Of a stretch of 64,000 nt of DNA, positions 1,319 through 64,000 are shown piece by piece (within the stretch, counting starts at the first letter, position 1; each line of letters opens with the position of its first letter). The DNA is taken from NCBI RefSeq assembly GCF_004010195.1, contig NC_057749.1, positions 7,275,416 through 7,339,415 on the forward strand, given 5' to 3'. A program made the position numbers and the translations under genes. The notes below the pieces were generated by a model. The model was not told the DNA's origin, searched no databases, and saw only the letters and a program-made list of their open reading frames with translations. This DNA is from Chiloscyllium plagiosum (taxonomy: Eukaryota).

Positions 1319-1503
1319 TTAAAAATTCATACAACATCAGATTATAGTCCAACAGGTTTATTTGGAAGCACTAGCTTTCAGAGCGCCGCTCCTTCATCAG
1401 CTGGTTGAACTAATGTTTCCAATTAAACCTGTTGGACTATAATCTGGTGTTGTGTGATTTTTAACTTTGTACACCCCAGTCCAACACCTGTTCCTCCACA
1501 TCA
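1319..1503. mobile_element. Short fold-back Penelope-like insertion (family P2) with hammerhead core
   Basis: Arms 1319-1375 and 1410-1466 are inverted copies; flanked by near-TSD ttcctc(t/g)aaaatg at 1306-1318 and 1504-1516; minus-strand CTGATGA-A-GGAGC-ggc-GCTCT-GAAA-GCTA-GTG at 1369-1403. Confidence 0.75.
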
Positions 1504-1794
1504 TTCCTCGAAAATGCATCTACACTGCCTGCCTCAACTACTCCACCATTTGCATTCTAACCTCTGCCTCAGTAAAGACATTTCTTCTGAATTCCCTACT
1601 TGCTTTTTACTTGATTTTTTTTAAGAATACCAGAACTGTTACCGTGCAGCAGTCCATTCAGTCCATTGTCTCTGCTACTTCATGTCAATCTCCTGCCTTT
1701 CACCCATACCTCTGCACACCATTTTGATTGAAATAATCATCCCATGCCTCTCTTAACTGTCTCAATTGAACATGCCTCCAGTGTGCATTTCCTG

Positions 1795-2545
1795 TCCTAA
1801 CTGGCACAGTGGGCTGGGGGTTGGCTTGTGAAGCAGTGTGATGCCAACAGCATGGGTTCAATTCCTACACTAGCTCAGACTGCCATGTAGGACACTCCTC
1901 CTTAACGTTTCCTGAGGTATGGTGACCCTCAGGCTAAACTCACCATCCTATTTACCAGCACTTGGCCATATCCCTTCCTATTTATATATCCATGCACATG
2001 CCTTTTGAATGTTGTAATGGTACCAGCCTCCACCACTTCCTCTGGCAGCTCATTCCATACATGCACCACCCTCTGTGTGAAAAAGTTGCCCTAAGTTCCC
2101 TTTTAAATTTTTCCCCTCTCACCAATAACCTATGCCCTCTAGTTCTGGACTCCCCACCCAAAGGAAAAGACCTTATCTATTTATTATATCCATGCTACAC
2201 ATAATTTTATAAACCTTTATAAGGTCACCCCGCAGCCTTGGACACTCCAGAGAAAACAGCCCTAGCCTATTCAGCCTCTCCCTATAGCTCAAATCCTCCA
2301 ACCCTGGCAACATCATTGTAAATCTTTTCTGAATCCTTTCAAGTTTCACAACATTCTTCGGAGACCAGAACTGCATGCAATATTCCAAAAGTGGACCAGT
2401 CAACACTATATTAGTTTAAGATATCTGGTCAGCATGGATGAGTTGACGGTGCTGTACATCTCTATGACTCAGCGACTTTATCAGTCATTCCTCTCTAATG
2501 AGAAAGCGGCCTTAAGGTCTCATAAGACAATGGTGATGCAATACT
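1795..2545 (+). mobile_element. tRNA-headed SINE (family C) split by a CR1 insertion
   Basis: 1795-1946 and 2480-2545 together match the contiguous copy at 56737-56950 (gccaacagcatgggttcaattcc ... gaccctcaggttaaactcacc ... ctctctaatgagag). Confidence 0.7.
1947..2470. mobile_element. HER1/CR1 LINE 3' fragment with 5' inversion
   Basis: 1947-2404 minus strand encodes CR1 RT C-terminus (PLLEYCMQFWSP...LERIQKRFT...RLRGDLI); 2405-2470 is the missing 3' tail on the plus strand. Confidence 0.85.
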
Positions 2546-2624
2546 TGCTGCATGAAAAACAATATTTCACATCTTCTCTGCTTTGTCTACACATCACTTT
2601 AAATATCGTAAAGTTTTAGAACCA

Positions 2625-3185
2625 TTGGTGGTCCTCTTTGGAATACTATGTACAGTTCTGGTCTACCCTGTTATAGGAAGAGTATCATTTAACTGGAGAG
2701 GATCCAGAAAAGATTTACCAGGATGTTGCTGGAATGGAGGGTTTGAGATGTAAAAATAGGCTGGATAGGCTGGGATTTTTTTCACTGGAGCAAAGGATGC
2801 TGAGGAGTGTCCTTATAGGGGTTTATAAAATCATGAGAGGCATGGATAAGGTGGATAGCAAAGATTTGTATTTCCCCAGTGTGGGGGAGTTCAAAACGAG
2901 GGGGCACATCTTTAAGGTGAGAGGAGAAAGATTTTAAAAAGACATGGGGGGGGGGGCAACTTTTTTTTACACAGAGAGTGATTTGTGTGTGGAATGAACT
3001 GCCAGAGGAAGTGGTGGACTTAGGCACAGTTACAATGTTTAAAGGATGTTTGGCTAAGATCTTGAATAGGAAAGGTTTGGAGGGATATGGGCCAAGCACA
3101 GGCAGGTAGGATTAGTTTAATTTGTAAACATGGTTGGCGTGGAATGATCGGACCAAAGGGTCTGTTTCTGTGCTGTATGACTCTA
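2625..3185 (+). mobile_element. HER1/CR1 LINE 3' fragment
   Basis: Decayed RLDRLGFFSLEQR...VYKIMRGMDKVD...TRGH motif and tail ctgtttctgtgctgtatgactcta. Confidence 0.9.
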
Positions 3186-4010
3186 AGATTTTCTGAAACA
3201 CCTTGCATTTATGTTGCCTAGTTTTTGTCAACCTGACACACAGAAACATCTTCTCCACATCTACCATACTGATACATTTTGTAATCTTGAAAGATGGCTT
3301 TCAGGTCATCCTGACCGACAGTTGGCAGCTTGCATCTTGGTCAATTTTGGTCCAGAGGACCTTGTCCATTAATCCCAATGATTCACTCCCTCATTTCTGT
3401 TCTTGTAGACCTCAAACAGTACGGATACAGTGCCTGATGAAGCCAGTCTTAATTGCTGGCTTGCAAAACTGCTTATCACCGTGGTCCAGTGCTGCATCTG
3501 CGTCAATTTGACATCCTAAACAGGTTACGAATATTGAAACAACCACCCAGTTGAGTGTAATGTAAAAATCATTCAGCTGGATCTTGAGAGGATGAGATGC
3601 CACCCATCATTCCCACCTACAGCTCTCGTTGTAATTTTCCACCTTTTGACAGCCCATGCTGGAACCAGTAAAAAATCGGTGGGCATTAGGGAACATTCTC
3701 CTCACACCACATCACATAAAGAACAAGGAACAGGCTAGGGAAGGTTCGAAGGCAAAATGTATTGGATGGACATTTACTAGCATAATGTATCTGCACTGGT
3801 AATAATGAGGTTGTGATTCATAATAGGGCCTTCATTTTGTTCACCATGATAATATTTTATAATACAATTACTGCAGTTTTAAAATTGCCTCCTGCATCAT
3901 AATTGCTCTCGAATGACAATTGTCTGCACTGATTCAGTTTTCATATTGCACTGATCAATGATTTTTATGCAGTCAAAAAAAAGCTCCCAATTGTCTTCAT
4001 TAGAATTTCA

Positions 4011-4302
4011 TAGAATCCTTACACTGTGGAAGGAGGCTATTCAGCCCATCAACCATCTTCTGGAAAACTTCCCACTTAGCCTTACCCTTCTACTTCCCAT
4101 GGCTAACCCAGCTAGACTGCACGTCCCTTGGACACTATGCGCAATTTAACATGACCAATCCACTTAACCTGCACTGTGGGAGGAAACCCACACAGACACG
4201 GGGAGAATGTGCAAACTCCACACAGTCATCTAAGGTGAGAATTGAACTAAGATCGCTGGTGCTGTGAGGTAGCAGTGCTAATCACTGACCCACCATACTG
4301 CC
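4011..4302 (-). mobile_element. HE1-type (V-domain) SINE
   Basis: Reverse complement of tRNA-like head, gtgtggagtttgcacattctcccc core and ttccacagtgtaagg tail. Confidence 0.85.
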
Positions 4303-4422
4303 ATCCTATCATGTGTACATTAGCATCCACAGCCAAACTGATTTCACACTTCGAGATACATAGCTTCTAAACTTCAACAACTGGGGCTGGTGCTGAACGC
4401 TCAGTGACCTCATCTGACAAGA

Positions 4423-4765
4423 TGGTTGTAGAATGGCTATGTCCCTGGGATAGCAGCCCAGAAGCTTTTGGGGTTGTGGGTTCAAAACGCACTGTAGTAG
4501 CTGGTGGAATTTAAATTAAATTAACAAATCTGGAATATAAAGTAAGTCTCAGTAATGGTGACCATGACAACCATCATCAGTTGTGGTAAAAGAAATGTTA
4601 TCCTTTTCACTAGAACTCTTTAGGGAAAGAAATCAGCCGTCCTTACCTGGTCTGGCTTCTATGTAACTCCAAACCCACAGCAATTTGGTTGAATTGAGTG
4701 AATTCAAGTGTAATTAGGGGTGAGCATGAAATATAGATCTTGCCAATGATATACACAAAAGAATA
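4423..4765 (+). mobile_element. tRNA-headed SINE (family B)
   Basis: ggttcaaa...ggtggaattta...ctttagggaaagaaatc...ccttacctggtctggc...cccacagcaat; same family at 22765, 23718, 35990, 38878, 41432, 62395. Confidence 0.75.
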
Positions 4766-4839
4766 ATAGTTAACAGCACCAGTGAGCTATTTACAGCAGC
4801 ATGACATGGAAGGGTCTGACATTATTAGACTCTGGGTAC

Positions 4840-5350
4840 TGATGTCAAGTTATAGCAAAGATATTATCAAGCTGGAGAGGCTTCAGAAAAGATATCACAG
4901 AATGTTTCCGGGAATGGAGGGTTTGAGTTATAATGTGAGGCTGGATAGACTAGGACATTTTTTACTGGAGCGTAGGAGGTTGAGGGGTGACCTTACAGAG
5001 GAATATAAAATCAAGAGGGGCATAGTTAAGGTGAATGGCAGATGTCTTTTCCCAAGTTTGAAGGCTTTCAAGACTTGGGGGCATATTTTTAAGGTGAGAG
5101 GAGAAAGACTTTAAAAAGATGAGGGGCATTTTTTTTAACACAGAGAGTGTGGTTCGTCTGTGGAATGAACATCCTGAGGAAGTGGTGGATGTGAGTACAG
5201 TTACAGCATTTAAAAGATATTGAGATAAGTACATGAATGAGAAATATTTGGAGGGATATGGGCCAAATGCAGAGACTAGTTGAGTTTGGGATTATGGTGG
5301 GCATGGACTAGTTGGACCGAAGAGTCTGTTTCCATGCTGTATGACACTGT
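4840..5350 (+). mobile_element. HER1/CR1 LINE 3' fragment
   Basis: KDIIKLERLQKR...RRRLRGDL...YKI motif plus CR1 tail. Confidence 0.9.
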
Positions 5351-7299
5351 GACATGGTGAGGACGGTGTTCACCTTTGCCTTGTGGCTGGGGAAGCAAAG
5401 TCTGACAGGATCATATGTCTAGTCACTGCCCAGTTGCCCACTCTTGGAAATGCATGAGAATATGCACTTTTCACTGAAATGCTATTGAACAATGCTCAGT
5501 GCAAAGTTTCACACATCGGCCATGGAAATTTGCCTGAAGTAGCAGAGAGCACCTACAGAGCTACACAGCTGAACCGAGACTTTGGGAGAGGGAAGAAAGT
5601 TAGGTGGGAAAATGGGCAAAATCAAAAGGTTGCATTGGAATCACGATGTTTTCATTCTTAGTTTGCCAGCACGACTGGTCTTTAGTTTAATCCTAACCCT
5701 CACCCTAAAACTGTCTTTACTGATGGTCTTATACTGAGGTCTCTAGGAGAGCTAGTGCCACCAGCGTGCTGGTCTAATGTAGGCAATTGCATTGTGAGTC
5801 TGGCAGAATCCACAAAATACAGACTCTCCTTTATTTTTGAACGTCTGAAAGATTGAACAGCGACCTGGATGCTTGCATGCAGTATGTTCCAATGTACATA
5901 TATGTGTTGCACTATTGCAAAAGATTCCAGAAAGACGGTGTATCTCTAAGACAGTGAAACAATATCACTATATGTGATATTCTAGTGCATGGGTTCTCAC
6001 CTCATCTTCAGCAGTGCAATGCAGTCAGTGCAGTGTGTAGTCTGTTAGTCATGTATATTGTTCTTGCCATGTTTTTTAGCTGTAATATCAGTAAGCATAG
6101 AAACTAGACTATGAGTAACTCTGCAATCTCATAACAGTGTAAATAGTTAGTGTTGCTAGTAACCTTCAAGCCATCTGTCTCAACTAGATCTGTTTCTTTG
6201 TGGTCTTGTTAAAGTAAAGATACACACTCAGTTTACATCGTGCTAGCAGTGGTGTTTAACTCAAGAAATCGCATGTTTGACACAAGTAATTTTCATTTGA
6301 TATAAACTCATTATAGGAACTTGCACTGCACAGGAATGGGCCATTCATGCCATCAAGTGTGTAATATCCAGATAAGGCTCTTCTTACTGCACCACATCCC
6401 TCCAATATGCTTCTAATTCTTTCTTCTTGATGTACCATCTAGTTTCCCCTTAAATATCTGTGTGCTATTTGCCATCGCCACTTTGAATGTTCTGCAATCT
6501 CATTGGTGGAATGAATCCAGACTACGAAATCTATGTTTCTCTGAGTCCAGTGTTTATTACCCTTAAAAAGCAGCCAATGTGGGTATTACATCAACAGGAG
6601 CTAAATCTTCTTATAATTTCATACACAATAACTTGTACTCCTATGGTTCCAAGTTTATTTTGACAAAAGAACCACTTTATGTGAAAGAGGGACATTTCCT
6701 CTCTAGCAGCCTCATTTCTTTCACACTTAATCAATTTTTTTGACATCCCAGCATCGTTGACCCACTCCATTAAAACCCTACACATATGGGGTGGCAATAC
6801 ATAAGTACAATGCTTAGTTTTCCATTGAATATTTATTCCTCTATTATGAAAGAGGGATGTAAAATTAACTCTGTTAATGCATTAGTAATGAATAGCTCAA
6901 ATATTCACTGATCAATAAGTTCTTCTCGTGACGCATATTAGACGTGTCCCATAAGGGAATTAGGCAATCTACAATCTAATTTCATCGAATCCTTTTTATC
7001 CCAAACATGCACAGATCATATTTTTTTATTATCTCCTTTTAGCATAGGTCCTGCCCCAAACCATAAGGCCCCATCGTGACCATTCTCCACTGTATGGATT
7101 AATTGGGCAACACATCCTAATTCCCTTAATAGAAACAAACTCACAAACCTCTCATTTGACACCATCACTCCACGGCATTCTATGGTTTGAGAAGGGAGCC
7201 CATCAATACAATCTCCCGGATAAGTTAGGAGAGACAATAAATGCAACAAGACCCACATTTTCATGACTGGAACACATAATGGTGTATGACAACGAGACA

Positions 7300-7610: not shown

Positions 7611-7664
7611 ATGATTCCCTTCTCTATTGTAATTCAATGGAATACTCTATTGTTGGATCAGTGG

Positions 7665-13896: not shown

Positions 13897-14256
13897 AACA
13901 GGTAATGGAAAAAGTGCTGGCCTTATCAGCAACACCCATATCCCGTGAGCAAATATATCAAAAGATTTCCCAGTATCTTCAATGGAAGCAAACATTAACA
14001 TTGATACATAGAACATAAGACGGGAGGAGGCCATTCAGCCTTTTGATCCTGCTCCATCATTGAACATGATCATGGCTGATCATCCAACTCAGTCGCCTGT
14101 TCCCACTTTCTCCTCAAAACCTTCAGAACCCTTTAGAACTCCATCTAACTCCTTCTTGAAAACGTTCAATGATTGGGCCTCAATTGCTTTGTGGCAGAGA
14201 ATTTCACAGGCTCACCACTGGGTGAAGGAATGTCTCCTCATCTCAATCCAAAATGG

Positions 14257-14423
14257 GTGAAAGTGAGGACTGCAGATGCTGGAGATTAGAATCAAGATTA
14301 GAGTGGTGCTGGTAATGCACAGCAGGTCAGGCAGCATCCGAGAAGCAGGAAAATCGACGTTTCGGGCAGGAGCCCTTCATCAGGAATGCCTGACCTGCTG
14401 TGCATTTCCAGCACCACTCTAAC
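14257..14423 (-). mobile_element. Short PLE insertion (family P1) with partial inversion
   Basis: 15-bp near-TSD ctcaatcc(a/t)aaatgg at 14242-14256 and 14424-14438. Confidence 0.85.
14352..14387 (-). ncRNA. Minimal type I hammerhead ribozyme motif (core intact)
   Basis: Minus strand attc-CTGATGA-A-GGGC-tcct-GCCC-GAAA-CGTC-gatt; stem I imperfect. Confidence 0.65.
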
Positions 14424-15077
14424 CTCAATCCTAAATGGCTTAGCCCGTATCCTTACACTGTGACCCCTGTCTCCGGAGAAGTGCAACAAACACTGCACCC
14501 GATTCCTTCTGTTCTCTGAAGGAGTGAGTGAATTTACAAACAGGCCAATTTAGTTTCACGCCTGTAGCTACACCTTTGGATTTTACTACAAAATTAAAAA
14601 TAATATATCTTGAAACAAGGAACTTAAGTGTTGTTCCTTCGTGAAATTTTTGTCAGAGGCAAAGATCGCTAGTCGATTACCAAAATGGCTGCTGATCCTG
14701 ATGTTTTCAATTCTAACGTAGAAATCGAAAGAAAAAAAAACGCTGACCTTTTCTTTGTATAAATGTTGGCTGACCTGCTGTGTAATTCTCAGCATTTACT
14801 TTTTCTTCTTGTTTCACTTCCATCTTCTGGTTGCCTTGGTGACCAGCCTCGATTGCCTGACTCTCCTTGCAAACAGCAATCTGCTCACTTCCGTTATAAA
14901 AACGCTTCAAGTGAACCTCACACATTCTGTCTGGTGGGTGGCTGACAATAGACATTTTGTACCCCACAGAAAAGAAAAAGTCTTGTGTGTAGAGCCATAC
15001 TCAGTCAATGAAGCAATGATATCTCGTGTGGAGATCAAAAGGAGACTGGAAATATGTTTCAATAGTCACAGCCACCT

Positions 15078-18277: not shown

Positions 18278-18442
18278 TGTTGTGGAGGTGCCAGTTTTGG
18301 ACTGGGATGAACAAGGTCAGAAGTGACACTACACCAGGTTATAGTCCTTCAGGTAACTTCATCTGCCGAAGGGGCAGTGCTTAGAAAGCTTGTGATTTCA
18401 AATCAACCTCTTGGACTATAACCTGGTGTCAACTGACTTCTG
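18278..18442. mobile_element. Fold-back PLE insertion (family P2 variant)
   Basis: tcagaagtgacactacaccaggttatagtcc versus ggactataacctggtgtcaactgacttctga inverted arms; decayed ctgccgaaggggcagtgcttagaaagc core. Confidence 0.7.
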
Positions 18443-20499
18443 AAGGTAGTATTGAGTTACGAATGGGCATTAAATGCTGCCCCCAGCCTGCAACACCCAC
18501 ACCCCACAAGTGAATTTGAAAAAACAATTGCCAACCACTCTCCAGAATTGGCCTGAAGCCTCGAAAGACTGAAGGTTAGTCACCAGGATACATTTGTGAG
18601 CGATCCCAGAAAAATAAAATGGGTTATAAAAGGTTTGCTTCTTAAATTGTCCATGAGCGCTTCAATTTAGCAATTATAAACAAAATGGTTCAGGTTACAA
18701 AGATTTCTGTTGCTTTCCATTTGGCACATGGGAGGGTCAGGCATTGACAGGGTTGAAAGGTTGGATGAGACTGGGGAATGGACAATTGGAGGTCATGAGA
18801 TGACGCCTGCCCAGAGTAGGCTGAGGGTTAATGGACTTTTGTTTGAGGGATTGGCTAGATGGAACATTGTGCTTTTCTCTTCAACACCAGCTGTGTACTT
18901 GGCAACGTTTAGCTGCTCGTCTTATTTAGTTTATGAAACCCATTGATCAGGTGGTGAAACTGTCCAGCTGAGTTCTCTGCTAAATTACTAATTATTATTA
19001 TAACCATTGTTATAGCTCTTCGCTTCTCTAGATTGACCCCTGTTTCTTATTCTCCCCATACCCTCTCTGGGTTGTGTCAAAATCCAAATGCTTCAATTTC
19101 TCTCTCTTTCTATATTTATTTCTTTAAGTCTGCTAGCTGTGTTGTTGCTGTTGGATACACAGTGTGATATCCGGAGGATGTAGACGTAACTCATTTGTAA
19201 GACTTTCTGCTACACACTCGGATGGTTGATGTTTTAAGTTCAAGTCTAACTCGCACACAATGTCTGTTGACACATCAGTGCAGCGCAGCAGGGATGCTAC
19301 ATGATTAGAGGTGCCAGCTTCCAAGTGGCATGTTGAGCTGCTAGTGCAACCAATCTCTCTTGCATAGTTCAAAGAAGTGCTTCCCAACATTCCACCCTCA
19401 CAACCAATGGATTCGGCCCCATTAGTGTTTGCCAGGATGAAAATGGCAACTGCACTTCACCAAGCGAATTTCGTTGTATCTGGTTTGACATGACTGGCAA
19501 AAAAAGTGATGACACAAGGAAGAACATTTTGCCAGATAAGATCTCAAGTGCACAGCTTGATGGGTTTGTGATTGCAAACTCTACGGTAATCTTCAGAAGG
19601 GAAGTAGATTAATACTTGAAGGAGAGAGACTTGCACACATTTGAGAAACAAGCAAAACAGTAGGACATATTTGGTGCAGGTAGAGTTACAACATTTAAAT
19701 ATTTGGGCAATACATGAGTACAAAATGTTTGGAGGGACTTAGGCCAAGCACAAACAGGCGGGGCTAGTTTAGTTTGGGATTATGATCAGAATGGACCAAT
19801 TGGACTGAGGGGTCTATTTCAATGACTAACTAGATCACTCAATAAAGTTACTGGCATAAACTCAAAAAGTTTCTTTAAGTGCTAAAGAACCCAATGCTTC
19901 CAAGATGTAAAGGTTATTCATAATAAAGAAATAGATGATAATTCATTGCCATAAAATCCAAATACAGTTAAAGTAACGGAGCTTGATTATCGTTGGCAAC
20001 ATTAAATAATGGTAGTCACCTTCTGATGGACATTTCTTTTAGATTTTAAAGGCATCAGCGATGTAAGGGAAAAGCAAGAATATGGCATTGAAGGACCGAA
20101 TGCCCTACTCCTGCTACTAGCTTCTATGTTTACTCAAGAGGTGTTGGCCCACATACATATATCCCATTTAATTTAGAAAACACATGATTAAACATAATTT
20201 ATTTCCACTTAAAATTGGCATTTTCATTTGCCAGAGGAAACTTGCCGTGTAAAATTACAGTTAGCCTGATAACTGTATGTGGTATGTGTGACAATTAGTG
20301 GGGGTCATTGATGGATATCATGGTGACAAACCACTTGTCCCAACAGTAGGAATTTAGAAATTCTCTTTCACATGGCGCGCGTGCCTCTGATCAGACTTGT
20401 AGATGAAAGGTTAAGTCAAGATTTGTTGGAGCGTAAGAAAAGATGCACTTTGGTTTTCCGACTGTGGTTTTTGCCATTCCTTAGTGGGTATCCATTTTA

Positions 20500-20880: not shown

Positions 20881-21050
20881 AGAAGCAAAAACTGGCAAGT
20901 AGAAGATGAGGTTGAGTGCTGCCACCAATACTGTATTCTAAATTATCCTTAATCAATTTGCTCAGACACGCTAGGACATATCTCCATGGCAGAGGAGACT
21001 TGAACATTGACTTTGTGGCTCAAAGGAAAGGCACTACCAGTGTGCCACAA

Positions 21051-21239
21051 TAATTTGGAGATGCCGATGTTGGACTGGGGTGTACAAAGTTAAAAATCAC
21101 ACAACACCAGGTTATAGTCCAACAGGTTTATTTGGAAGCACTAGCTTTTGGAAATCACCTGCTGAAGGTGCAGCGCTCCGAAAGCTAGTGCTTCCAAATA
21201 AACCTGTTGGACTATAACCTGGTGTTGTGTGAATTTTAA
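21051..21239. mobile_element. Fold-back PLE insertion (family P2) nested in SINE D
   Basis: ~60-bp near-perfect inverted arms 21090-21150 and 21180-21240; TSD cagtgtgcc(c)acaa at 21038-21050 and 21240-21253; hammerhead-like core at 21156-21190. Confidence 0.85.
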
Positions 21240-21629
21240 CAGTGTGCCCACAAGACCCCCATGAGTCTAAGGGCATATTGGTTAGCAGTGGGAGAGGATG
21301 AACTACTCCCGAGTCCTAATGAAAAGAGGAACTTAACAGGATGCAATATCTTTTGGTGCATGATAGCAACAGGTACTACAAATGACATTGGCTGAGTTCG
21401 ACAGAAAAACTAAAACCATCAGGAGAGACAAATGATATGTCTGCTCATTGGAATCTGAAGTGGAACTCCTCTTTTCACCAATGAAGATGGCATTATGTAA
21501 TCAGATCAGGTCAAACTACTGCAGTCCCAACATGAACCCAAAAAAGGCACTATATCAATGCAAGCTCTTCTTTCCAAATTCAGCACAGAGCACGGACTGA
21601 ATCTGGGATCCTCATGTTCTGTATCCATG

Positions 21630-24288: not shown

Positions 24289-25349
24289 TATTTTAAGTCG
24301 TTAGGAATGCCAACCATGTTTGAGTGTACCCCTGGAGGTTTCATCACATGACACACCAGCCCTTAGTCAGCCAACACATCTATCCTTGAGATGTGCTGCC
24401 AATTTGAAACGAACGTGACTCATTCCCCAATTGGATAATGCTTGACTTTCAGCCAAGTAGCAATTTACTTTTCCCACATTTTCAAACTCTTTGCAGGTAA
24501 ATGATATAAAAATTATCACATGCTTTTTTTGATGTGCCTCCTTTTGTTTCATCCAGAGGTTGATCAAGGAGTCCCTACAGTGTGGAAGCCGGGTATTTGT
24601 CCCATTGAGTCCACACGGACCCTCCAAAGAGCCACCTCTTGATCTCTGGCCTTTCGTTTCCATCATACAACAATGACCTTGTCACCGTACTAGAATTCGC
24701 ACAAGCAAGGAGAGCTTACATTTGTTGAAAAGTTTGGAAAATGCAAGATGCTCAATTCGGAACGAGATCCATCAGCACGCTTAGATCAATCAAGGCAACT
24801 CGAAATGTGAACTAAATTCAAGCCATTAGGATGGAGAATGGAAAGGGACTGACGTCACCTTACTTCTTATATGTTACGGACCCTGAATGAAGCATTTTAA
24901 CAATGAAGTCTATATGTACTCTGAAGAAGTTGTAATGTAGAAATGATGCATTGGCTTATAATTTCAATATAATTTTCATTCAATATTCTTTCCTTTTTAA
25001 TATCCCATTCGCCACTTACCTTTAACCTGCTGAATTTTACTATTTTTATTCCTGTATGCTTGGCATACATTTCCAAGTTTTTAACTTGACTCCGCGTATT
25101 CAATCTTTTCAATATAACTCACACTTCAGCCCTCAGGCTGCAAGCATGTTACCTGGATGAAGTACCATTAGTATTATTTTCCACTTGGCCTGGTCCTGAT
25201 ATAAGTTGCATCTCCCTGATTGTGTCTCCCACCAAGTACTGGTGAGAAAATTGAAGATCCCTCAGAACTTGAGCCTGCATCCCAACTACTGGGGCATTCC
25301 AGGTTTTAAGAGCAGCAACATCAAAAAGGTTGATAACAAGAGATACTTG

Positions 25350-25449
25350 GAGAAAGTGAGGACTGCAGATGCTGGAGATTAGAGTCGAGAGTGTGGTGCT
25401 GGAAAAGCACAGCAGGTCAGGCAGCATCCGAGGAGCAGGAGAATCGACG
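25350..25449 (-). mobile_element. Short P1 PLE insertion
   Basis: Perfect 8-bp TSD gatacttg at 25342-25349 and 25450-25457. Confidence 0.85.
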
Positions 25450-29576: not shown

Positions 29577-29787
29577 CTAGGAGAAAGTGAGGACTGCAGA
29601 TGCTGGAGATCAGAGCTGAAAAGGTGTTGCTGGAAAAGCGCAGTAGGTCAGGCAGCATCCAAGGAGCAGGAGAATCTACGTTGCGGGCATGATTCCTGAA
29701 GAAGGGCTCATGCCGGAAACGTCGATTCTCCTGTTCCTTAGATGCTGCCTGACCTGCTGTGCTTTTCCAGCAACACATTTTCAGCGC
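29577..29787. mobile_element. Fold-back P1 PLE insertion
   Basis: Perfect 13-bp TSD agaataaactcat at 29564-29576 and 29788-29800; inverted arms; plus-strand CTGAAGA-A-gggctcatgccg-GAAA-CGTC. Confidence 0.9.
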
Positions 29788-31366: not shown

Positions 31367-32251
31367 AATGTTCCATTTACGACTTCTCGCACTCTTCTCT
31401 CTCATGTTTATCGAGCTGCCCCCATTTACATCTTCACTTACCTTCTATAGTGATATGGTGGCCTTTACATTTCCCAATAGTAATAATTCTTTCCTTCTAA
31501 TAAAAGTGCTTTGCTAAAAATAAATGTTACATCTGTACTTAAGGATCACAGAGAATGCTGTCCAAGAAGCAGTAACACTGAGACAATTCAGGTTCCTTGA
31601 CATGGGCATTCAAATCAGATGCCCATGAAGGCATGACATTTTGCCAATGGGATCGGCAATCCTGCTCCAGCAAATATTAATATGTGGAATCACCACACAC
31701 GCTTCAGTCTCTTCTTCCCTGCTCTTTAATAAATCCCTTCTTTTTAATTCCTGAAGGCGTCAGAAAGCAGAGTGCTGATTCACATGAGGCTCTCAACAAT
31801 GTTCTATCATTCACTTAGAAATTGCTCCTTTTGATGTAGGTAGCTCAGAACAGAGGCAGCAATCTGGGAATCCAACCTTTATTCCAACGGAACAACCTAA
31901 TCAGAACTGAGGAGGCACAAGTCGGATGGGAGATGGGAAGGACACCACTTTTCACTCACACCCTTCAGGAAAAATTGTGGGGAGAAAAATCCCTGTGAAG
32001 AAAATCAATGCAATATTATCAAATAAAGTTTAAAAATGGGAAGTTATAGCCTAAGAGTAGAAGGTGGAACCTTGCAATGATTGAATGCCTGTGTATGAGG
32101 CACAGCTTACCTTTCTGAGCCAACTGGTACACTTAAGATATTTCTGCTTGTAGTGCTCAGGCAATTTTCTTTGAAAGCTGTGAACACTAGCTGAATATTT
32201 GAGATCATTCTTTGAGCATCTGATGATGCAATGAACACTTTCCGAGCTACC

Positions 32252-32352
32252 ATCAGCTCTGAGGAAGGGTCACTGAACCTGAAACGTTAACTCTGATTTC
32301 TCTGCACAGATGCTGCCAGACCTGCCGTCTTTTTCCAACAACTCCTATTTTT
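32252..32352 (+). mobile_element. PLE terminal fragment (family P3) with hammerhead-like core
   Basis: gct-CTGAGGA-A-gggtcactgaacct-GAAA-CGTT-aac followed by cacagatgctgccagacctg; also at 43807-43905. Confidence 0.7.
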
Positions 32353-32542
32353 GAGATGTGATTCTATGCTGTGCTTTACGATCAAGTTTAGTCCAAAGGC
32401 CGTGTTTCTTTGCATGCATGGGAATTTAAAATATGCATCTTTGTCCTTAATTTGGATTGGCAAAAATAATTCTACAACATGTTCCCCTTCACCCTTCCCA
32501 ATCCCTTTGATTTCCTCTATAACATCTGAACATCTGAACATC

Positions 32543-36414: not shown

Positions 36415-37600
36415 TTATCATGATCCCTTCAGAGACCAATAGCTTTTGAAAAGACATTCAAACTTCCAGTTAATCGCTGAAAGGATGACAGAAGATTTCA
36501 TGTTTTAAGAACTTTACTGCAACAAAAGACTAAAAGCACTGGTACTAAATATTACCTTTTTATGCAACTTATATTTCAAACTACAAAACAAAACATTCTC
36601 CTTTTCCTTTTAGCACAACGGAAAAGCACTTCACAGATATACTTTACATAGTTCTTTAAGTAGACATTCAATTCTTATGTAAACAGTCTCAAGTGATTCT
36701 TAACTGCTAAGGATTTGCTTCTTTGTTTTCCCATCCTCAGTTCTGGGTCGTTTAATCTCAGAACTGTCATTTGTAGTGAGCTGTTTCCCCTCTTTCCCCC
36801 AGAGATCCTACCTCTAGAAAATATAAAGCAAATATTTCAGCCTTATTTTAATACCTCACAAATTCAGCTTTTTATCTATACACAGCTTCCACCCACAATC
36901 CTGCACGGTGTGCCACAGAACCTGACGATTATAGTTGTTTTCCCTCTCCCAGCTCTAGGCAGACTAACCCACTTGGAGAGAATTAAGGGAAACCATGGAC
37001 CTTACCCCTCTCAAAGCCATCGCCACGCCAACATGAATCACATGGGCCTTGTAGTCAGGTAATAAAATGCTGATTAGCTACTCTTGAGGCCCCATTGGAA
37101 TGCAAGAGCACACTACAAAGACCAATTGCTTATAACCTAACATTTTCTACAGATTTCTGCAATTCTGGAGCCTCTCCCACAATCCTGACGAAATGCTTCT
37201 GCTCGAAACATTAACTCTCCTGCTCCTCAGATGTTGCCTGCGCTTTTCTAGCACCACACTTTTTGACTGGAGACTCTCAGTTTAAGCATTGTTAGCATAA
37301 GGCTGCTGTCATTGTCTCTCAGCTTGAACATCATGCTCTTGTTTCCCAGTAAAACAAATAAAACAAAAAACAATGTTTGTCCCTTTTTTTCACTCTGAAC
37401 CAAAGCAGCTGTGCATGCTATTTCTTTTCCTGCATTCTTCTGATCAGCTCTTTATTTTCCCTTAAATTAAGAACATAGTTCAAAAATATAACACCCTTGT
37501 AAAGAGCACAGTTATGACTCCAGGAAACCAGCAGCAGCAAAATGAATGCAAAACACAACCTACAATATGGCAATAAGCAAGTTTTAAAAATTCTTGTCAC
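36415..37600. mobile_element. Possible decayed long solo LTR
   Basis: Begins tatcatga and ends ttgtcac (degenerate TGTCA-type termini); no TSD found; weak call. Confidence 0.25.
37177..37266 (+). mobile_element. Short P1 PLE insertion
   Basis: Near-TSD ctggag(c/a)ctctc at 37165-37176 and 37267-37278; core cCTGACGAaatgcttctgctcGAAAc. Confidence 0.75.
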
Positions 37601-40933: not shown

Positions 40934-41060
40934 TCTTCACCTGATGAAGGAGCAGTGCTCCAAAAGCTTGTGGTTTCAACTAAACCTGTTGGACTATAAT
41001 CTGGTGTCATCTGACTTCTGATTTTGTCAACTCCAATCCAACACCGGCACCTCCACATCG
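40934..41060 (+). mobile_element. P2 PLE terminal fragment (single arm)
   Basis: cac-CTGATGA-A-GGAGC-agt-GCTCC-aAAA-GCTT-gtg then aaacctgttggactataa. Confidence 0.8.
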
Positions 41061-42964: not shown

Positions 42965-43910
42965 TATGAAAATTAGCAAAGAACTAGCAAAGCTCAGTGG
43001 AAGCTGAAAGAACAGCACCTCCTTTGCCCCTTGGGGGACCCTGCAGCCTTCTGGACTCAATACTGAGTTCAATAACTTTTGGGCTTGAGCTCTCCCATGT
43101 CCTTACCCCCAACCCCCACACACCAGGCTTTGTTATCACACAGTCTACTATTACACACAACCCATTGTTCACCACTAACAGTCCCCATTAATACCTGAAC
43201 ACAACCAATGCTGGAGATCAGAGCGGGTCAAACAGCATCCATGGAGAGATGGCAAACTAACGTTTCGAGTGTGTATGACTCTTCATCAAAGCTGAAGTAA
43301 AGTGTGGAAAGGACAGCAATTCTGCTATGGTTGGGGGTGTGGGTGGTGGTGTCGGGTGCTAGTGGAGAAAAGATGTCGATAGTTTGACTGCCACATCTCT
43401 TCGAGGAATGCCTACCCTGAAGAGGTTTCGATCTTCCCACCCACTATCCCCACACCCCCACCCCACCCCAAACTATAACATAAATGCTGCTCCCTTCACT
43501 CTTCACTTCAGATCTGATGAAGAGTCATCTAGATTTAAAATGTTAGCTTGCTCTCTCTCCATGGATGCTGTCTGACCTGCTGTGATCTCTAGCATTTATT
43601 GTTTTCAGTGCAGATTCCAGCATCTGCAGTCATTTACTACTCCATTAATAGCTGTTCACCCTCCCAGCCAGATCGTTATCCATTCCTTTACCTGTCCATC
43701 TGTTCTTCTCTCTCTTTGGGCTCTATCCCCACCTATCATTTACTTCTTACTCCAGCCCCACCCCCCATCTTCTACATAGAACCTGACATTTTCCTCGCTA
43801 CCATGAGTTCTGAGGAAGGGTCACTCAACTCGAAACATTAACTCTGATTTCTCTGCACAGATTCTGCCAGACCTGCTGTGCTTTTCCAGTAATGTCTGTT
43901 TTTGTTTCTC
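42965..43910. mobile_element. Cluster of Penelope-like fragments (GIY-YIG C-terminus, inverted terminal repeats)
   Basis: 42992-43080 encodes decayed KLKEQHL...LGTLQPSGLNTEFNNF; 43200-43350 and 43450-43605 are inverted copies; three hammerhead-like cores (~43258-43293 minus, ~43510, ~43807). Confidence 0.75.
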
Positions 43911-44100: not shown

Positions 44101-44880
44101 ACACAGCTGGGGTGGAGACCTTCAAACTGAAGAACATTCAGTCCCAGTCTGGCCAATACCATTATCAGTGTCAAACTGTATCTGGAGCATCAGATTAAGA
44201 CTGGGCTTTCTTATTCTCTGCCGTAGCTAAGTGTTGTGTAACTAATGAGCAGATAGTTCTCAATCAACAGGGTAGTCACATTGCTGAAAATCACTGCATT
44301 CAGCAAAATTACATTATTCAAAACACATATTCCCATAGAAATGTTTCAGCTATATTCCCAGAAAGCCAAACGAGTACAGCATACAAGCACAAAGTTAGTA
44401 TCAAACACTATTCAGTCCATTGAGCCTGTTCCACCATTCAGTATGATCATGGCTGATCACCACATTCAGCTCCCTGTTCCTGCTTTCTCGTGACACCCTT
44501 CAATTCCTTTAGCTAATTCTTTCTTGAAACCACCCGTTTGCTTTCTGTGGTAGAGATTTCCACAGGCCCACTGTTTTCTGGGTGAAGACATTTCTTTCAT
44601 CCCAGTCCTAAATGCCCACCCCATATCCTTAGACTATGACCCCTGGAATTGAACTCCACGGTCATCAGGAACATCCATCCTGCATTTACCTTGTCTCATC
44701 CTGTTCGAATTTTATAGATTCCTATGAGATCTCCCTTATCCATCCAATCTCCTGTCAATATAGTCCTACCTGACCCAATTCCTCTTCATACATCAGCCCT
44801 GACATCCCAGGAAACAGTCTGGTAAACCTTTGATGCAGTCCCTCTGTAGCCAGTTAAGGACAGGTGGGGTCTCACCAAGC

Positions 44881-45051
44881 TGAAACTTTATTGCTGGAAC
44901 AGCACAGCAGGTCAGGCAGCATCTAGGGACAGAAGATTCGACGTTTCGGGCACATGCCCTTCTTCAGGAAAGAGGCAGAGAGCTTCTTCAAGGAAGGCAT
45001 CCTTGTAAGAGGATTCGCAGTAGGTTGAAATCTTCGAGGAGAAAGTGAGGT
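44881..45051 (-). mobile_element. Young P1 PLE end with tandem terminal-repeat junction
   Basis: P1 terminus followed by new sequence, then ggagaaagtgagg, the start of another terminus copy, running into Ns. Confidence 0.75.
44937..44970 (-). ncRNA. Minimal type I hammerhead ribozyme motif (intact)
   Basis: Minus strand TTC-CTGAAGA-A-GGGC-atgt-GCCC-GAAA-CGTC^GAA; stem I TTC/GAA, stem II GGGC/GCCC. Confidence 0.75.
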
Positions 45052-53832: not shown

Positions 53833-53871
53833 CAGCAGCTAACCATTGGTGTCTTGGAACAACAAAAATAT

Positions 53872-54650: not shown

Positions 54651-54694
54651 AAAAGGAAGTAGTCTGCACTTGTGGTGTATGAGGTTTTGTGAAC

Positions 54695-58219: not shown

Positions 58220-58410
58220 GACACTTTGTCAGAGCTCCACCCCTTGCACTCATTAGGCGCAACACAAGATTGCCAAATGGCCTTCTCCATGGCAACTGGA
58301 TTTAACTTGCCACCCCAATCAGTCCCCTTTCTCCTATAGTATACATTGTAGTGATAGTTTGAAATTTGCCATTCTTGTATTTGTCCTGATGAGCTCTGGA
58401 AACCTGTCTA
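58220..58410 (+). mobile_element. PLE-like terminal fragment (family P4)
   Basis: tttgaaatttgccattcttgtatttgtcCTGATGAg matches the reverse complement of 17145-17182 and 37665-37695. Confidence 0.55.
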
Positions 58411-59110: not shown

Positions 59111-59368
59111 CACTTAAGATATTCAATCACATTCTGATTATGGACAGTGACTAAATCAACATATACATTAGAACTGGGTGAAAGACCTTCTTTATGATGC
59201 TTGCTTAACAAGTGTCCTTCTTCAACAAAACCAAAAATGGTTCTAACACATCACACACTGTTTCCCCAGACAGTCAGGTGCATCAGGCCAAATGCTTTGG
59301 GTAACTCAAACTCCCACATAGGCTAGGCAAGTGGGCAAAGAAGTGGCAGATGGAATACAATATGGGAA

Positions 59369-59796
59369 CGATCCGCATCCATGAACACCAACTAGCCACG
59401 AAACGACACACTATCTTTAGTAGCCACACACGCAGATGACAAGCAACATGAATTCGACTGGGACAACACTACTATTATAGGACAAGCCAAACAGACAACA
59501 GTCAGGGAATTCCTAGAGGCATGGCACTCATCCACAGATTCAATCAATAAGCACATCGACCTGGACCCAATATACCGGCCACTGCAACGGACAGCTGGAA
59601 CTGACAACCGGAAGCAGCAGATTCAAACCACTACAAATGCCGGAGGAAAGATCACAGAAGCGCTTCACAGGAGGCTCCCAAGCACTGAGGATGTCACCTA
59701 GACAGGGGACGAAACGTCTGCAACACAAATTCCCAGCTCGGCGAACAGAACCACAACAACGAGCACCCGAGCTACAAATCTTCTCACAAACTTTGA
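59369..59796 (+). mobile_element. 5'-truncated Penelope/Poseidon-type element (family P5), GIY-YIG C-terminus
   Basis: RIHEHQLATKRH / LSLVATHADDKQHEFDWDNTTIIGQAKQTTVREFLEAWHS; perfect 12-bp TSD acaatatgggaa at 59357-59368 and 59797-59808. Confidence 0.9.
59682..59721 (+). ncRNA. Minimal type I hammerhead ribozyme motif (intact core)
   Basis: GCA-CTGAGGA-T-GTCACCT-agac-AGGGGAC-GAAA-CGTC^TGC; stem I GCA/TGC; predicted cleavage after 59718. Confidence 0.8.
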
Positions 59797-61277
59797 ACAA
59801 TATGGGAAAGTGTGAGGTTATGCATTTTTGGTGAGAAGAATAGAGGCATGTACTATTTTCCAACAGGAAAAGTTTCGGAATTCTGAAGCACAACGGGACT
59901 TGGGAGTCCTGGTTCAAGATTCTCTAAAGGTTAACATGCAGGTTCAGTTGGTGGTTAGGAAGGCAAATACAGTGTTAGCATTCATTTCAAAAGGGCTGCA
60001 ATACAAGAGCAGGGATCTTCTGCTGAGGCTGTAGAAGGCTCTGGTCAGACCCCATTTGGAATATTGCGAACAGTTTTGGGCTCTGAACTAAGGAAGGCAC
60101 TGGAGGGATTCTAGAGGCTGATAGTATGGTCCTAGGGGTCAAGAATGTGGGGGGATCTCATTGAAATTTACAGAATACTGGAAATAGCACTCGTGGAGAA
60201 GATGTTTCCACTAGTAGAAGAGACTAGGACCCGAGGGCACTGCCTCAGAGTAAAGGGACAACCCTTTCGAACTGAAATGAGTTGGTGTTCCTTCAGCTAG
60301 AGGGTGGTGAATCTGTGGAACTCAATGCCAAGGTTGGGGCTAAGTTATTGACCGTTTTTAAGATAGAGATCGAAAGGTTCCAGATAGGTAAGGGGATCAA
60401 GCATTCATGGGGAGAAGGCAGGAGAATGGGGTTGAGAAACAGATCAGCAGTGATCGAATAACAGAGCAGATTTGATTGGCTGAATGACTGAATTCTGCTT
60501 CTATATCTTATGGTCTTATGGAAAACGTACAAATGAGGCTAAATTTGAGTGAAAGCTGAAAACTTTTGTGTAGGCTTAATTGTCTGGTATCAGGTATGGA
60601 ATGTTTTTGTATGCTAGTGTTTTCCCCTATTCCTTAAATAGTGGAAATTTAACACATGGGATCCAAATATTTAAATTGGTTATGGTTAAATTGGAGGGGA
60701 ATGCGCTTACTCATGTCCTGCAGCAGTTCAAAGGTTAAGTCATATACATGGCTGGTCGAGAACTATAGACTCCACGGTTTGTGTGCATGCATTTGAGCTG
60801 CAGCCTGTAAGATTGTGTGTTGGGGATTATAATGAATGAATGAATTTGCTTCTCGAGTTGTACAAATCATTTTGGCTTGACCTTCAGAGCAGCACCGCAG
60901 GGGTGCTGATTAACATGAAAAGCCAGAAACACGATCAAATCACAATACAATCATGCCTTATCAATACTATCACACAACTGAAGCAGAGATAGGCCTGCAT
61001 CACCATGACAACCACTCTTAATAAACATGACCAAAGGCCTGTGTTACACTGAATGCACAGAACATTACTACCACTGCCCAGAGAAAAACTCTATTATCCC
61101 TGTGAAAATGCCACTTTAAAACCTTTCGTCTGCGTGCTAATAGGACATTCAGACTTTAGTTTAATGTTAATCATGTAACTACGTTCCAAGCCAGAGATAT
61201 GTCTGGTGAATATACCATTTTTGCAATGTTACAGCTCAGCACATGGTTAGAAAGTCACTGATTCAAATGATAAAATT

Positions 61278-61812
61278 TACTCAGATGTTGCCGAGGATAG
61301 ATGGTTTGAGTTATAAAGACAGGCCGAAAAGGCTGGGACGTTTTTCCACTGGAGCATAGGAGGTTGAGGGGTGACTTTATTGAGGTTTATAAAATCATGA
61401 GGCATTGAGATAGGATTACTGACAGGTGTCTTTTCCCTAGGATGGGTTCGAGATTAGCAGGTACATGTTTAAGGTAACAGGAGAGAGATTTAAAAAAGAC
61501 ATGAGGGGCATAGTCTTTACACAGAGGGTGGTTCACGTGTGGAATGAACTTCTTAAGGAAGGCGTGGATGTAGGTACAATTACAACCTTTGAAAGACATT
61601 TGGATGAGCACATGTATAGGAAAGGTTTTATGGGATGAGTTTAGATCAGAGTGGTGCTGGAAAAGCACAGCAGGTCAGGCATCATCTGAGGAGCAGGAAA
61701 ATCAATATTTCAGGCAAAAGCCCTTCATCAGGAATAGAGGATATGGGATGAGTTTAGTTTGGAATTATCGTTGGCATGGATTGGTTGGACCAGAGAGTTT
61801 CTGTGCTGTATA
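61278..61812 (+). mobile_element. HER1/CR1 3' fragment
   Basis: gaggttgaggggtgactttattgaggtttataaaatcatgag...gtggaatgaact. Confidence 0.88.
61645..61741 (-). mobile_element. Short P1 PLE insertion in CR1 tail
   Basis: Perfect 16-bp TSD tatgggatgagtttag at 61629-61644 and 61742-61757. Confidence 0.88.
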
Positions 61813-61979
61813 GCTTTCTGACAAGGAGTCACTGCGATATTCATACATAATCCCTCAACTATCACTTTTCACATTTGACCCAACCCTGATAAGAATAACT
61901 CAGATGTATGCAGCATCATAATTGGGTGCCATCTTGTGGATATTAGAGTCTCGCTTTCTCAAGTGGACAGCAAAGGTCT

Positions 61980-62182
61980 TCATGTCCTGGCCAATATTTA
62001 TCCCTCAACACACATCCCTTAAAAGGAATGATCTGGTTGTTATCACATTATTTGTGGAAATCTGCTACGTGCAAATTGGTCATCACACATCCAACATAAC
62101 AACAAGTGGCCATACTTGAAAAGTATTGGTTTGATATAAAGCTTTGGGACATCATGAGGTGTTTAGAATTATATAAACAGAT
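61980..62182 (+). mobile_element. Deu-domain SINE 3' part
   Basis: tgtcctggccaatatttatccctcaac...gatctggttgttatcacatt...gtgcaaattgg. Confidence 0.75.
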
Positions 62183-62394
62183 TGGAAAATTTCAGCCTGT
62201 TCTGCTGAAGAAGAAAGGAAGTTTGCTTAAAGGTCTTAAGTTGTCTAGACAGGTTACATCAAGGAAAATAGATCCCATGAGGAGAAGGATCAAGAGTGAG
62301 AGAGTACATTTTTAAGGTGATTGGCAGAAAGAAGCAATCATGATATTAGGAGAATTTCTTTTCATGCAGCAAGTGGAAAGGATTTGGATTGTGT

Positions 62395-62715
62395 TTTTTT
62401 ATTCATTCATGGGATGAGGGCACCACTAACCAGGCCAGCATTTATTGTCCATCTCTAATTGCCCAGAGGGCAGTTAGAGTCAACCACATTGCTGTGGTCT
62501 GGAGTCACATGTAGGCCAGACCAGGTAAGGATGGCAGTTTCCTTTCCTAAAGGACATTAGTGAACCAGATGGGTTTTTCCCAACAATCAATTAATGGTCA
62601 TCATTTGATTCTTAATTCCAGATATTTATTGAATTCAAATTCCGCCATCTGTCAGGTTCCTAGAACATTAGCTGGGTCTCTGGATTAATAGTTGAGCAAT
62701 AACACCACGAGGCCA
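62395..62715 (-). mobile_element. SINE family B (well preserved)
   Basis: ttttattcattcatgggatg...ggccagcatttattg...ggacattagtgaaccagatggg. Confidence 0.85.
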
Positions 62716-62726
62716 TTCATAGATTT

Positions 62727-62925
62727 ACAGAATCCCTACACTGTGGAAACAGGCCAATTGGCTCAACAAGTCCACACCAACTCTTGAAATAGTATCCCAC
62801 CCAGACCCCTTCCCCTACCCTATTACTTTACATTTCCCCAGACTAATGCACCTAACCTACACATCCCTGAACACTATAGACAGTTTAGCATGGCTAATTC
62901 ACCTAACCTGCACATCTTTGAGCTG
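62727..62925 (-). mobile_element. HE1 SINE 3' part, cut by the following PLE
   Basis: agaatccctacactgtggaaacagg ... cctgcacatctttg. Confidence 0.85.
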
Positions 62926-64000
62926 TGGAGAAAGGTAGGACTGCAGATGCTGGAGGTCAGAGTCAAGAGTGTGGTGCTGGAAAGACACAGGTCAGGCAGC
63001 ATCCGAAGAGCTGGAGAATCGATGTTTTAGGCATCGGCCCTTCATCAGGAATGAGGCTTGTGGGCCGGGGCGCTCAGAGATAAATGTGAGGGGGATGGGG
63101 CTGGGAGGAAGGTAGCTGAGAATGCGATAGATGAATGAAGGTGGGGGAGAAGGTGATAGGTCGGAGAGGAGGGTGGAGCGGATAGATGAGAAAGATGATG
63201 GACAGGTCAAGAGGGCATTGCCAAGTTGGAAGCTTGGGACTGGGATAATGTGGGGGGAGGGGAAATTAGGAAACTGGTGAAATCCATATTAATCCTGTGT
63301 GTTGCAAAGTCCCAAGGCGGAAGATGAGGCATTCTTCCTCCAGGCGTCGGGTGTTTAAGGGTTTGGCGATGGAGGAGGCCCAGAACCTGCATGTCCTCGG
63401 CGGAGCGGGAGGGGGAGTTGAAGTATTCAGCCACGGGGCGATGGGTGCAGGTGTCTCTGAGATGTTCTCTGAAATGATCCGTAAGTAGGCGTCTTGTCTC
63501 CCTGATGTACAGGAGACCAGATCGGGCGCAACAAATGCAATAGTTGACATTTGTGGAAGTCCAGATACATTTCTGTCAGATATGTATCTGGACATATGTA
63601 TTTGGGGCCTTGGTTGGAGATGAGGAGGGAGGTGTGGGCCCAGGTTTTGCACTTCTGCAGTGGCAGGGAAAGGTGCCAAGAGTGGGGGATGGGCTGGTGG
63701 GGGGCGTGGATCTGACAAGATAGTTGCAGAGGAATTGTCTCTCTGGAATGCTGATAGGGGTGGGGAGGGAAATATGTCCCTGGTGGTGGGGTCTGTTTGT
63801 AGGTGGCAGAGGATGATGTGATGTTTACTGAGGTTAGTGGGCTGGAAGATGAAAACCAGTCCTTGTTGCATTGGGCAGGGTGGGGTTCAAGGGGAAGTGG
63901 AGGACATTGCTGGAGATGTGCTGGAGGGTATCATCGACCACATGGGGGGGAAATTGCGATCTTTGAGGAAGGAGGCCATCTGAGATTTTCCAAGATGAAT
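62926..64000 (-). mobile_element. Neptune-type Penelope-like element (source of family P1), decayed; continues past window end
   Basis: Minus strand GTFPCHC..KCKT Zn-knuckle remnant, VNYCICCARSGLLYI (GIY-YIG with CxxC), RRLEEECLIFRLGTLQ; 3' terminus 62926-63055 matches the short P1 insertions. Confidence 0.88.

Follow-up and report, generated by a model that had tools for sequence, protein, structure and literature searches.

Hammerhead motifs and their families

The 64,000-nt stretch of Chiloscyllium plagiosum DNA analysed here (the window) carries about twenty short retroposed modules, each made up of a minimal type I hammerhead ribozyme motif followed by a 60–100-nt tail and measuring ~95–130 nt in all. 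These modules are likely to represent the 3′-terminal parts of Penelope-like elements (PLEs), or derivatives without an open reading frame (ORF) that were moved by the same machinery. All coordinates are positions in the window, and the results cover this window alone.

For detection of the motifs, both strands were searched with a basic descriptor consisting of CUGANGA, a helix II of at least 3 bp (preceded by 0 or 1 unpaired base), and GAAA, with 200 dinucleotide-preserving shuffles of the window as the null. Eight matches were found, compared with 0.65 ± 0.88 in the shuffles (maximum 4). A strict descriptor, which added A15.1...U16.1, a non-G at H17, and a helix I of at least 3 bp, gave four matches, one each in the families designated P1, P3, P4, and P5; the shuffle mean was 0.062, and a count of four was reached by none of 400 shuffles. 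Taken together, the hammerhead motifs are real and non-random.

A wider list was then compiled by allowing one core mismatch and adding similarity searches. It holds 16 full-length motif copies (P1, 7; P2, 4; P3, 2; P6, 2; P5, 1) and 3 partial P1 motifs. The core letters scored were C3 U4 G5 A6 N7 G8 A9, G12 A13 A14, U16.1, and H17 (not G); all of them are kept in 9 of the 16 full copies, and the other 7 carry one or two substitutions each. An intact core combined with a full helix II and at least three contiguous helix I pairs was seen only at 44936–44971 (minus), 43806–43843 (plus), and 59681–59722 (plus). Core defects in P2 and P6 are each confined to a single copy, so the parent sequences of these families had intact cores. 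The copies in the window are relics, about half of which have lost a core letter. A previous sequence-only reading had named ten sites, at all of which the letters it gave are present, and had counted well over a dozen cores; that count stands for recognisable copies, about half of them mutated, and an intact ribozyme in each family copy, as it had supposed, was not found. The features are as follows, with inverted pairs denoting two copies arranged head to head.

P1, P3, and P6
10160..10350, both strands: P1 inverted pair; minus arm running from 10228 to 10160, with hammerhead 10193–10228, core mutated; plus arm 10229–10349, 5′-truncated at helix II, with full tail
14256..14434, minus: P1 inverted pair; complete long-form unit running from 14387 to 14256, short inverted arm 14388–14420/34; target-site duplication of ~15 nt (by eye)
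14352–14387, minus: P1 hammerhead of that pair; core intact, predicted cut between 14356 and 14355, covariance model score 51.8 bits
15078..15135, plus: P1 copy in which homology begins at the first nucleotide past the predicted cut (reference positions 33–105)
25349..25449, minus: P1 tail-only copy, 5′-truncated 2–4 nt before the predicted cut, without the ribozyme core
29580..29786, plus: P1 inverted pair; plus arm 29692–29786, with hammerhead 29692–29727; minus arm (from 29691 to 29580) 5′-truncated within the motif and bearing the 3′ extension; target-site duplication AGAATAAACTCAT
37181..37268, plus: decayed P1 copy; helix II with 2/4 pairs, covariance model score 28.1 bits
38262..38340, plus: P1 copy 5′-truncated within the core; 12-nt target-site duplication
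44879..44971, minus: single P1 copy; hammerhead 44936–44971, strict descriptor, predicted cut between 44940 and 44939
61643..61745, minus: single short-form P1 copy; hammerhead 61700–61735, core letters intact, AUAU palindrome; 18-nt target-site duplication with 1 mismatch
62927..63052, minus: single long-form P1 copy; hammerhead 63017–63052, G12 to A
32235..32353, plus: P3 copy; hammerhead 32255–32292, core intact, helix II with 4/4 pairs, ACGU palindrome
43786..43904, plus: P3 copy; hammerhead 43806–43843, strict descriptor, predicted cut between 43839 and 43840
43198..43641, both strands: P6 inverted pair, absent from the sequence-only reading; hammerheads 43255–43293 minus (C3 to U) and 43510–43548 plus (G12 to A); both arms extending 50 nt or more upstream of the motif, 33-nt 3′ extension on the plus arm only; 13-nt target-site duplication

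P2
1312..1505, both strands: P2 inverted pair; 13-nt target-site duplication
1368–1404, minus: P2 hammerhead; core intact, helix II with 5/5 pairs, first helix I pair mismatched
18281..18443, both strands: P2 inverted pair, likewise absent from the earlier reading; decayed hammerhead at ~18357–18396 plus (the fourth P2 copy)
21049..21240, both strands: P2 inverted pair; hammerhead 21155–21191 plus, A6 to C; 12-nt target-site duplication
40937..41059, plus: single long-form P2 copy; hammerhead 40937–40973, G12 to A

P5
59369..59796, plus: 5′-truncated PLE copy of 428 bp, comprising the C-terminal part of a GIY-YIG endonuclease, the hammerhead, and a 78-nt tail
59681..59722, plus: P5 minimal hammerhead; core intact, helix II with 5/6 pairs, ACGU palindrome, strict descriptor, predicted cut between 59718 and 59719

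P4
17124..17159, minus: hammerhead-like words of the copy P4a; related copies at 37643–37674 minus and 58315–58393 plus

Sequence comparison within the window revealed that the tail following the motif is common to P1, P3, and P6, which places these three in one superfamily with covarying helices; the tails of P2 and P5 are unrelated to those of the other families. Judged by their sequences, the lineages number three (P1/P3/P6, P2, and P5) and not five. The proposal of five unrelated Penelope families is thus retained in part: the motifs are real and P5 lies in a PLE frame, but P1 and P3 (together with P6) share a tail, and P4 fails as a hammerhead family. In their upstream flanks, the copies mostly show no relationship to one another. 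A protein link between P1 and a PLE ORF was sought with a 56-aa translation read in frame through one P1 copy, and no protein sharing words with it was found.

The candidate family P4 was rejected. Any helix II at all could be formed in just one of its three copies (3 bp, without G10.1–C11.1), and the P4a segment folds worse than its own shuffles (z = +1.8). The third copy diverges directly after CUGAUGAG, and the conserved part of the repeat is that upstream of CUGAUGAG. P4 is probably not a hammerhead, and we read it as a chance resemblance or as a motif decayed past recognition.

Core features, pairing, and folding

Three properties of the motifs lie outside the descriptor: an extra nucleotide in the core, a palindrome, and compensatory changes in the helices. 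A single extra nucleotide stands between A9 and position 10.1 in 16 of 16 copies, compared with 13 of 25 shuffle matches. The A15.1-N-N-U16.1 tetramer is palindromic in 12 of the 16. The 10.1–11.1 pair is G–C or G–U in P1, P2, P3, P5, and P6 and is neither in P4. The extra nucleotide, the G10.1–C11.1 pair, and the 15.1–16.1 palindrome are the features from which Cervera and de la Pena are reported to argue against chance for the minimal hammerheads of PLEs (PMC4209133). With the helices covarying as well, the minimal type I PLE architecture put forward in the sequence-only reading is borne out.

Pairing was assessed across the P1/P3/P6 superfamily, where 87.2% of helix cells are paired; shuffling of partners lowered this value to 78.0%, with 0 of 500 shuffles reaching 87.2%, and sliding the partner by 1–3 columns gave at most 54%. 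Both sides have changed in 5 of the 8 pairs. Helix II has 97.5% of cells paired and 2 of its 4 pairs changed on both sides. In helix I, which has 2–4 pairs, 76% of cells are paired, and the first pair goes from C–G in P1 to U–A in P3 and P6. Elsewhere, helix II has 5 bp in P2 and 5 of 6 pairs in P5. Pairs predicted for the tail of P1 do not vary at all and show no compensatory change. A covariance model built from P1/P3/P6 picked up three more P1 copies. When the P1 motif pattern was scanned against public metagenome contigs and viral contigs, 0 matches were obtained in both.

Insertion anatomy and the P5 reading frame

The P5 copy ties a hammerhead directly to PLE coding sequence, of which the window contains the C-terminal part of the endonuclease. 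Its reading frame, interrupted by one frameshift near 59410, stops at 59699–59701, so that the stop codon falls within helix II of the hammerhead. Over its last 99 aa, the frame shows 71–91% identity to proteins predicted for Chiloscyllium, Hemiscyllium, and Rhincodon. The longer relatives bear RVT_1 and HTH_animal domains, and a more distant one (P0021) also bears GIY-YIG (PF01541); in the relative P0002, the letters GIY...YIG...R..EH are readable, although Pfam calls no GIY-YIG there. The nearest atlas clusters combine reverse transcriptase, HTH_animal, and GIY-YIG. Shark relatives share the C-terminal residues ...STEDVT, for which the hammerhead core supplies the codons. Going by this sequence context, the P5 motif lies where PLE hammerheads are known to sit. 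The copy is flanked by a 12-nt target-site duplication, ACAATATGGGAA, at 59357–59368 and 59797–59808.

Two further observations concern this copy and its relatives. The P5 insertion interrupts a reverse-transcriptase fragment resembling that of a long interspersed nuclear element (LINE; 59200–59368 and 59797–59900, plus), with the frame reading ...KKWQMEYNMG before it and ...KCEVMHF after it; from its look, this frame may be the part of a LINE that follows the reverse transcriptase. In addition, several predicted shark "host" proteins (P0001, P0006, P0014, P0019, and P0020) end in the PLE endonuclease tail. These models are isoforms of a 5′-nucleotidase-domain protein, MAP3K7, CUE domain protein 2, an EYA3-like protein, and a WBP2-like protein, and their tails are probably exonised or mis-annotated PLE fragments.

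For the remaining families, the evidence comes from the way in which the modules were inserted. Seven head-to-head inverted structures were found, three of P1 (10.2, 14.3, and 29.6 kb), three of P2 (1.4, 18.3, and 21.1 kb), and one of P6 (43.2–43.6 kb), and the junction point varies from case to case. By script, one arm is 33–43 nt longer than the other at the 3′ end in five of the seven, with values of 58 and 13 nt for the remaining two; manual reading of the 21.1-kb case gave 33 nt. Target-site duplications of at least 11 nt were seen at 8 of 18 insertions (the 99th percentile for random flank pairs is 10), and they flank the inverted structures as a whole. Insertion of the short modules took place in single events that left duplications and often produced twin inverted copies. 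PLE inserts have been reported to carry an adjacent inverted 5′-truncated copy and a 30–40-bp tail at one end only (Craig et al., PMC8557442), and a lizard PLE protein is reported to cleave and extend both strands in vitro and to initiate reverse transcription within the RNA (Frangieh et al., PMC11167929). The insertion marks of P1, P2, and P6 fit this PLE-type anatomy, which has been described as a peculiarity of these elements.

The 5′ ends of the copies follow a pattern of their own. Starts within a few nucleotides of helix I were observed for 7 of 13 P1 arms and for all 4 hammerhead-bearing P2 arms, a clustering that is not predicted by simple 5′ truncation of a 3-kb element. Possible explanations are a template RNA that begins there, or ORF-less mini-elements related to retrozymes without long terminal repeats (non-LTR retrozymes). 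The plus-strand P1 copy at 15078, in which homology begins immediately past the predicted cut, may derive from complementary DNA of a self-cleaved RNA, or may have arisen by chance (about 1 in 20, given six truncated arms).

The hammerheads of P6 (43510–43548) and P3 (43806–43843) are both on the plus strand, 296 nt apart, and come nearest to a direct tandem in the window. They belong to separate, neighbouring insertions, in keeping with a reported tendency of PLEs to insert next to existing copies.

The head-to-head insertions at 29580–29786, 21049–21262, 1312–1505, and 43195–43608 form near-perfect hairpins of ~85 bp or more; for the RNA of 29580–29786, the computed folding energy is −145 kcal/mol (z = −16). 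These hairpins account for sub-threshold matches to microRNA precursor models (mir-302, mir-2005, and MIR1858). By folding prediction, inverted pairs would form long hairpins in which the ribozyme is buried.

Other repeats in the window were also recorded. Decayed reverse-transcriptase remnants occupy 52219–54736 (minus), with RVT_1 in two ORF pieces and an ALKBH8_N match at 54286–54558, and the 3′ part of this remnant recurs elsewhere in the window (e.g. 2152–2359 and 4851–5119); the remnants are unrelated to the PLE relatives and are probably those of a LINE. The portion at 52848–53698 (minus) was considered as the PLE and rejected, its match to the PLE relative P0002 having an E value of 0.071 and no hammerhead lying beside it. 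At 30365–31337, a 21-nt unit is repeated ~45 times as a minisatellite (72% matches). A dispersed repeat family is represented at 25959–26024, 26291–26356, 32544–32609, 45373–45438, and 51805–51870; from its look, the start of this repeat may be the tRNA-derived head of a short interspersed nuclear element (SINE). No tRNA gene was found in the window by ARAGORN.

Origin of the modules and relation to known systems

The modules could have arisen by the following route, pieced together from the PLE literature. In a master transcript with two nearby motifs, pairing of the palindromic A15.1-N-N-U16.1 tetramers would form a double hammerhead, and cleavage after H17 would process the RNA of the element. 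Copies would then be inserted through target-primed reverse transcription by the reverse transcriptase/GIY-YIG endonuclease of the element, with both nicked strands serving as primers and synthesis starting inside the RNA. The outcome would be the duplications, the head-to-head pairs, and the 30–40-nt extension at one end.

Several results weigh against a PLE origin or against the motifs as hammerheads. No PLE ORF adjoins any P1, P2, P3, or P6 copy in the window, and no direct partial tandem of the pseudo-long terminal repeat (pLTR) type was found there for any family. The link to Penelope drawn in the sequence-only reading stands on P5, at the end of a PLE reading frame, and on P1, P2, and P6 with their PLE-type insertion marks, and lacks coding sequence beside P1, P2, P3, and P6. 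The covariation counts in P1/P3/P6 are supportive, not strong, since they rest on essentially two lineages (P1 versus P3/P6). Helix I is short, the fold of a single motif does not surpass that of shuffles (z between −0.03 and −2.4), and in the lowest-energy fold of the whole P1 unit, the core letters pair with the helix III region. In the window, the P1/P3/P6 covariance model missed the copies designated P2a and P2c as well as P4 and P5, and its best match outside the superfamily, P2b (40937), reached an E value of only 0.24 (15.1 bits). Given these misses, the link between families rests on the descriptor and not on a profile; the model is too sequence-specific for judging P2 and P5. Rfam hammerhead models gave no match in the window at the gathering score or at E ≤ 10, nor on a 121-nt slice around P5. 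Rfam is a detection tool rather than a definition: its type I and type III models share the catalytic core letters with the motifs described here but expect longer helices and a true helix III, which the minimal variants lack. Minimal PLE hammerheads are reported to cleave poorly in vitro even as dimers (PMC4209133) and, according to a review, are thought to act as dimers (PMC6765202); the weak monomer folding seen here is as the literature reports for minimal hammerheads.

Given the absence of an Rfam match, the motifs might be regarded as chance hammerhead-like words within unrelated repeats, either SINEs or hairpins resembling miniature inverted-repeat transposable elements (MITEs). Several copies do lie at the tips of long hairpins with sub-threshold microRNA-model matches, and P4 demonstrates that a repeat can bear CUGAUGAG without a hammerhead. 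This explanation is nonetheless very improbable: where the strict descriptor would be expected to find 0.06 matches it found 4, in different families; the descriptor did not ask for an extra nucleotide, a palindrome, or compensatory changes; P5 occupies the known position of a PLE hammerhead; and the variable junctions and one-sided tails of the hairpins point to insertion events rather than to a fixed MITE structure. Chance is largely refuted for P1, P2, P3, P5, and P6 and is still the best reading for P4. It is also unlikely that the hammerhead-like module was kept as a structural or recognition element for the reverse transcriptase, or as a passenger parasitising PLEs, with no useful self-cleavage in vivo. 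The poor in vitro cleavage just cited would agree with such a role, as would the very short helix I and the unremarkable monomer folds in the window; PLE clades without canonical hammerheads are moreover reported to proliferate well, and the authors of that report suggest that hammerheads may simply parasitise PLEs (PMC8557442). However, the conserved letters are the catalytic ones and the helices vary with compensation, a pattern given by selection for a ribozyme fold, and one P1 copy begins exactly at the predicted 5′ cleavage product, which may be chance.

A more serious contender, which we hold to be possible while not favouring it, is that P1 and P2 are ORF-less, non-autonomous, retrozyme-like mini-elements with short master RNAs of their own, mobilised in trans by PLE proteins. 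The clustering of starts near helix I in P1 and P2 speaks for it, as random truncation would not produce such a cluster, and so does the lack of adjoining coding sequence. A preprint (10.64898/2026.07.22.740005) is reported to argue that animal retrozymes are non-autonomous PLE derivatives and to have found retrozymes in its one Chondrichthyes species, with solitary monomers common. Non-LTR retrozymes are, however, defined by tandem arrays, and no array of hammerhead units was found in the window, where Tandem Repeats Finder returned only the 21-nt minisatellite and microsatellites. Sequence 20–70 nt upstream of the motif belongs to the P3 and P6 copies as well, so that the hammerhead does not mark the edge of the family in every case. 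Terminal redundancy would also be expected from a circular or tandem template, contrary to the comparison of tail ends with the sequence upstream of the motif, in which no alignment reached z > 3.5. The likely account is still that of end-modules from PLEs, whether as 3′-terminal parts or as ORF-less derivatives of them.

Among described systems, the closest is the minimal hammerhead of PLEs. As described in PMC4209133, it has the same core, one nucleotide between A9 and 10.1, a G10.1–C11.1 pair, and a short or absent helix III with a palindrome, and each genome has several consensus families, with covariation, whose copies are mostly solitary and distant from ORFs, with some close pairs on opposite strands. 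The helices are shorter here, at 4–6 bp for helix II and 2–4 bp for helix I, compared with 7–8 and 4–5 bp in the schistosome families of that report. The present case differs further in its shark host and in that the P5 motif extends over the final codons of the ORF, stop codon included. With non-LTR retrozymes (PMC7229834; Li, Clavereau and Pollet 2026), as these sources present them, the modules share short, non-coding type I hammerhead units that are probably dimeric, a sequence link to PLE pseudo-LTRs, and dispersed solitary monomers. Retrozymes are described as forming tandem arrays and circular RNAs and as having mostly canonical hammerheads with loop–loop contacts (PMC7229834), whereas the 64 kb examined contain no arrays, and the units are ~95–130 nt long with minimal hammerheads. 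The seven duplication-flanked pairs, with their 33–43-nt extension of one arm, resemble PLE insertions as reported (PMC8557442; PMC11167929). Unlike described PLE inserts, they are miniature (~160–440 bp) and without an ORF, and the 5′-complete arm mostly starts at helix I.

Minimal hammerheads have been reported in fishes, coelacanth, Xenopus, and reptiles, with thousands per genome, mostly solitary (PMC4209133), and Penelope elements are reported among the repeats of the whale shark (PMC8455134). No description of PLE hammerheads in sharks was found in a full-text literature search, which did not cover the supplements of the 2026 preprint, where related families may be listed. The result adds one more vertebrate lineage to a pattern already published and changes no concept. 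It is possible, though less likely than not, that P1 and P2 are ORF-less, SINE-like "mini-Penelopes" of ~95–130 nt, in which a 5′-terminal minimal hammerhead is joined only to a tail that serves the reverse transcriptase, and that amplification in trans has brought them to very high copy numbers in orectolobiform sharks. If so, the one motif per 4 kb seen here would scale to ~10^5–10^6 copies, compared with 4,000–9,000 in coelacanth and Xenopus, and the head-to-head pairs would preserve natural in vivo traces of both-strand priming and of internal initiation, two activities demonstrated to date only in vitro, with the lizard PLE. The hairpin insertions, if transcribed, could feed small-RNA pathways. 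Miniature one-tailed inverted insertions, mined by the thousands, could map where reverse transcription starts and how both strands are used. The very large reservoir of self-cleaving RNA motifs proposed in the sequence-only reading extrapolates from this single window. Should the whole genome match the density of the window, few known genomes would be richer in hammerhead motifs than those of sharks, which would also make a good system for studying the role of the hammerhead in the PLE life cycle.

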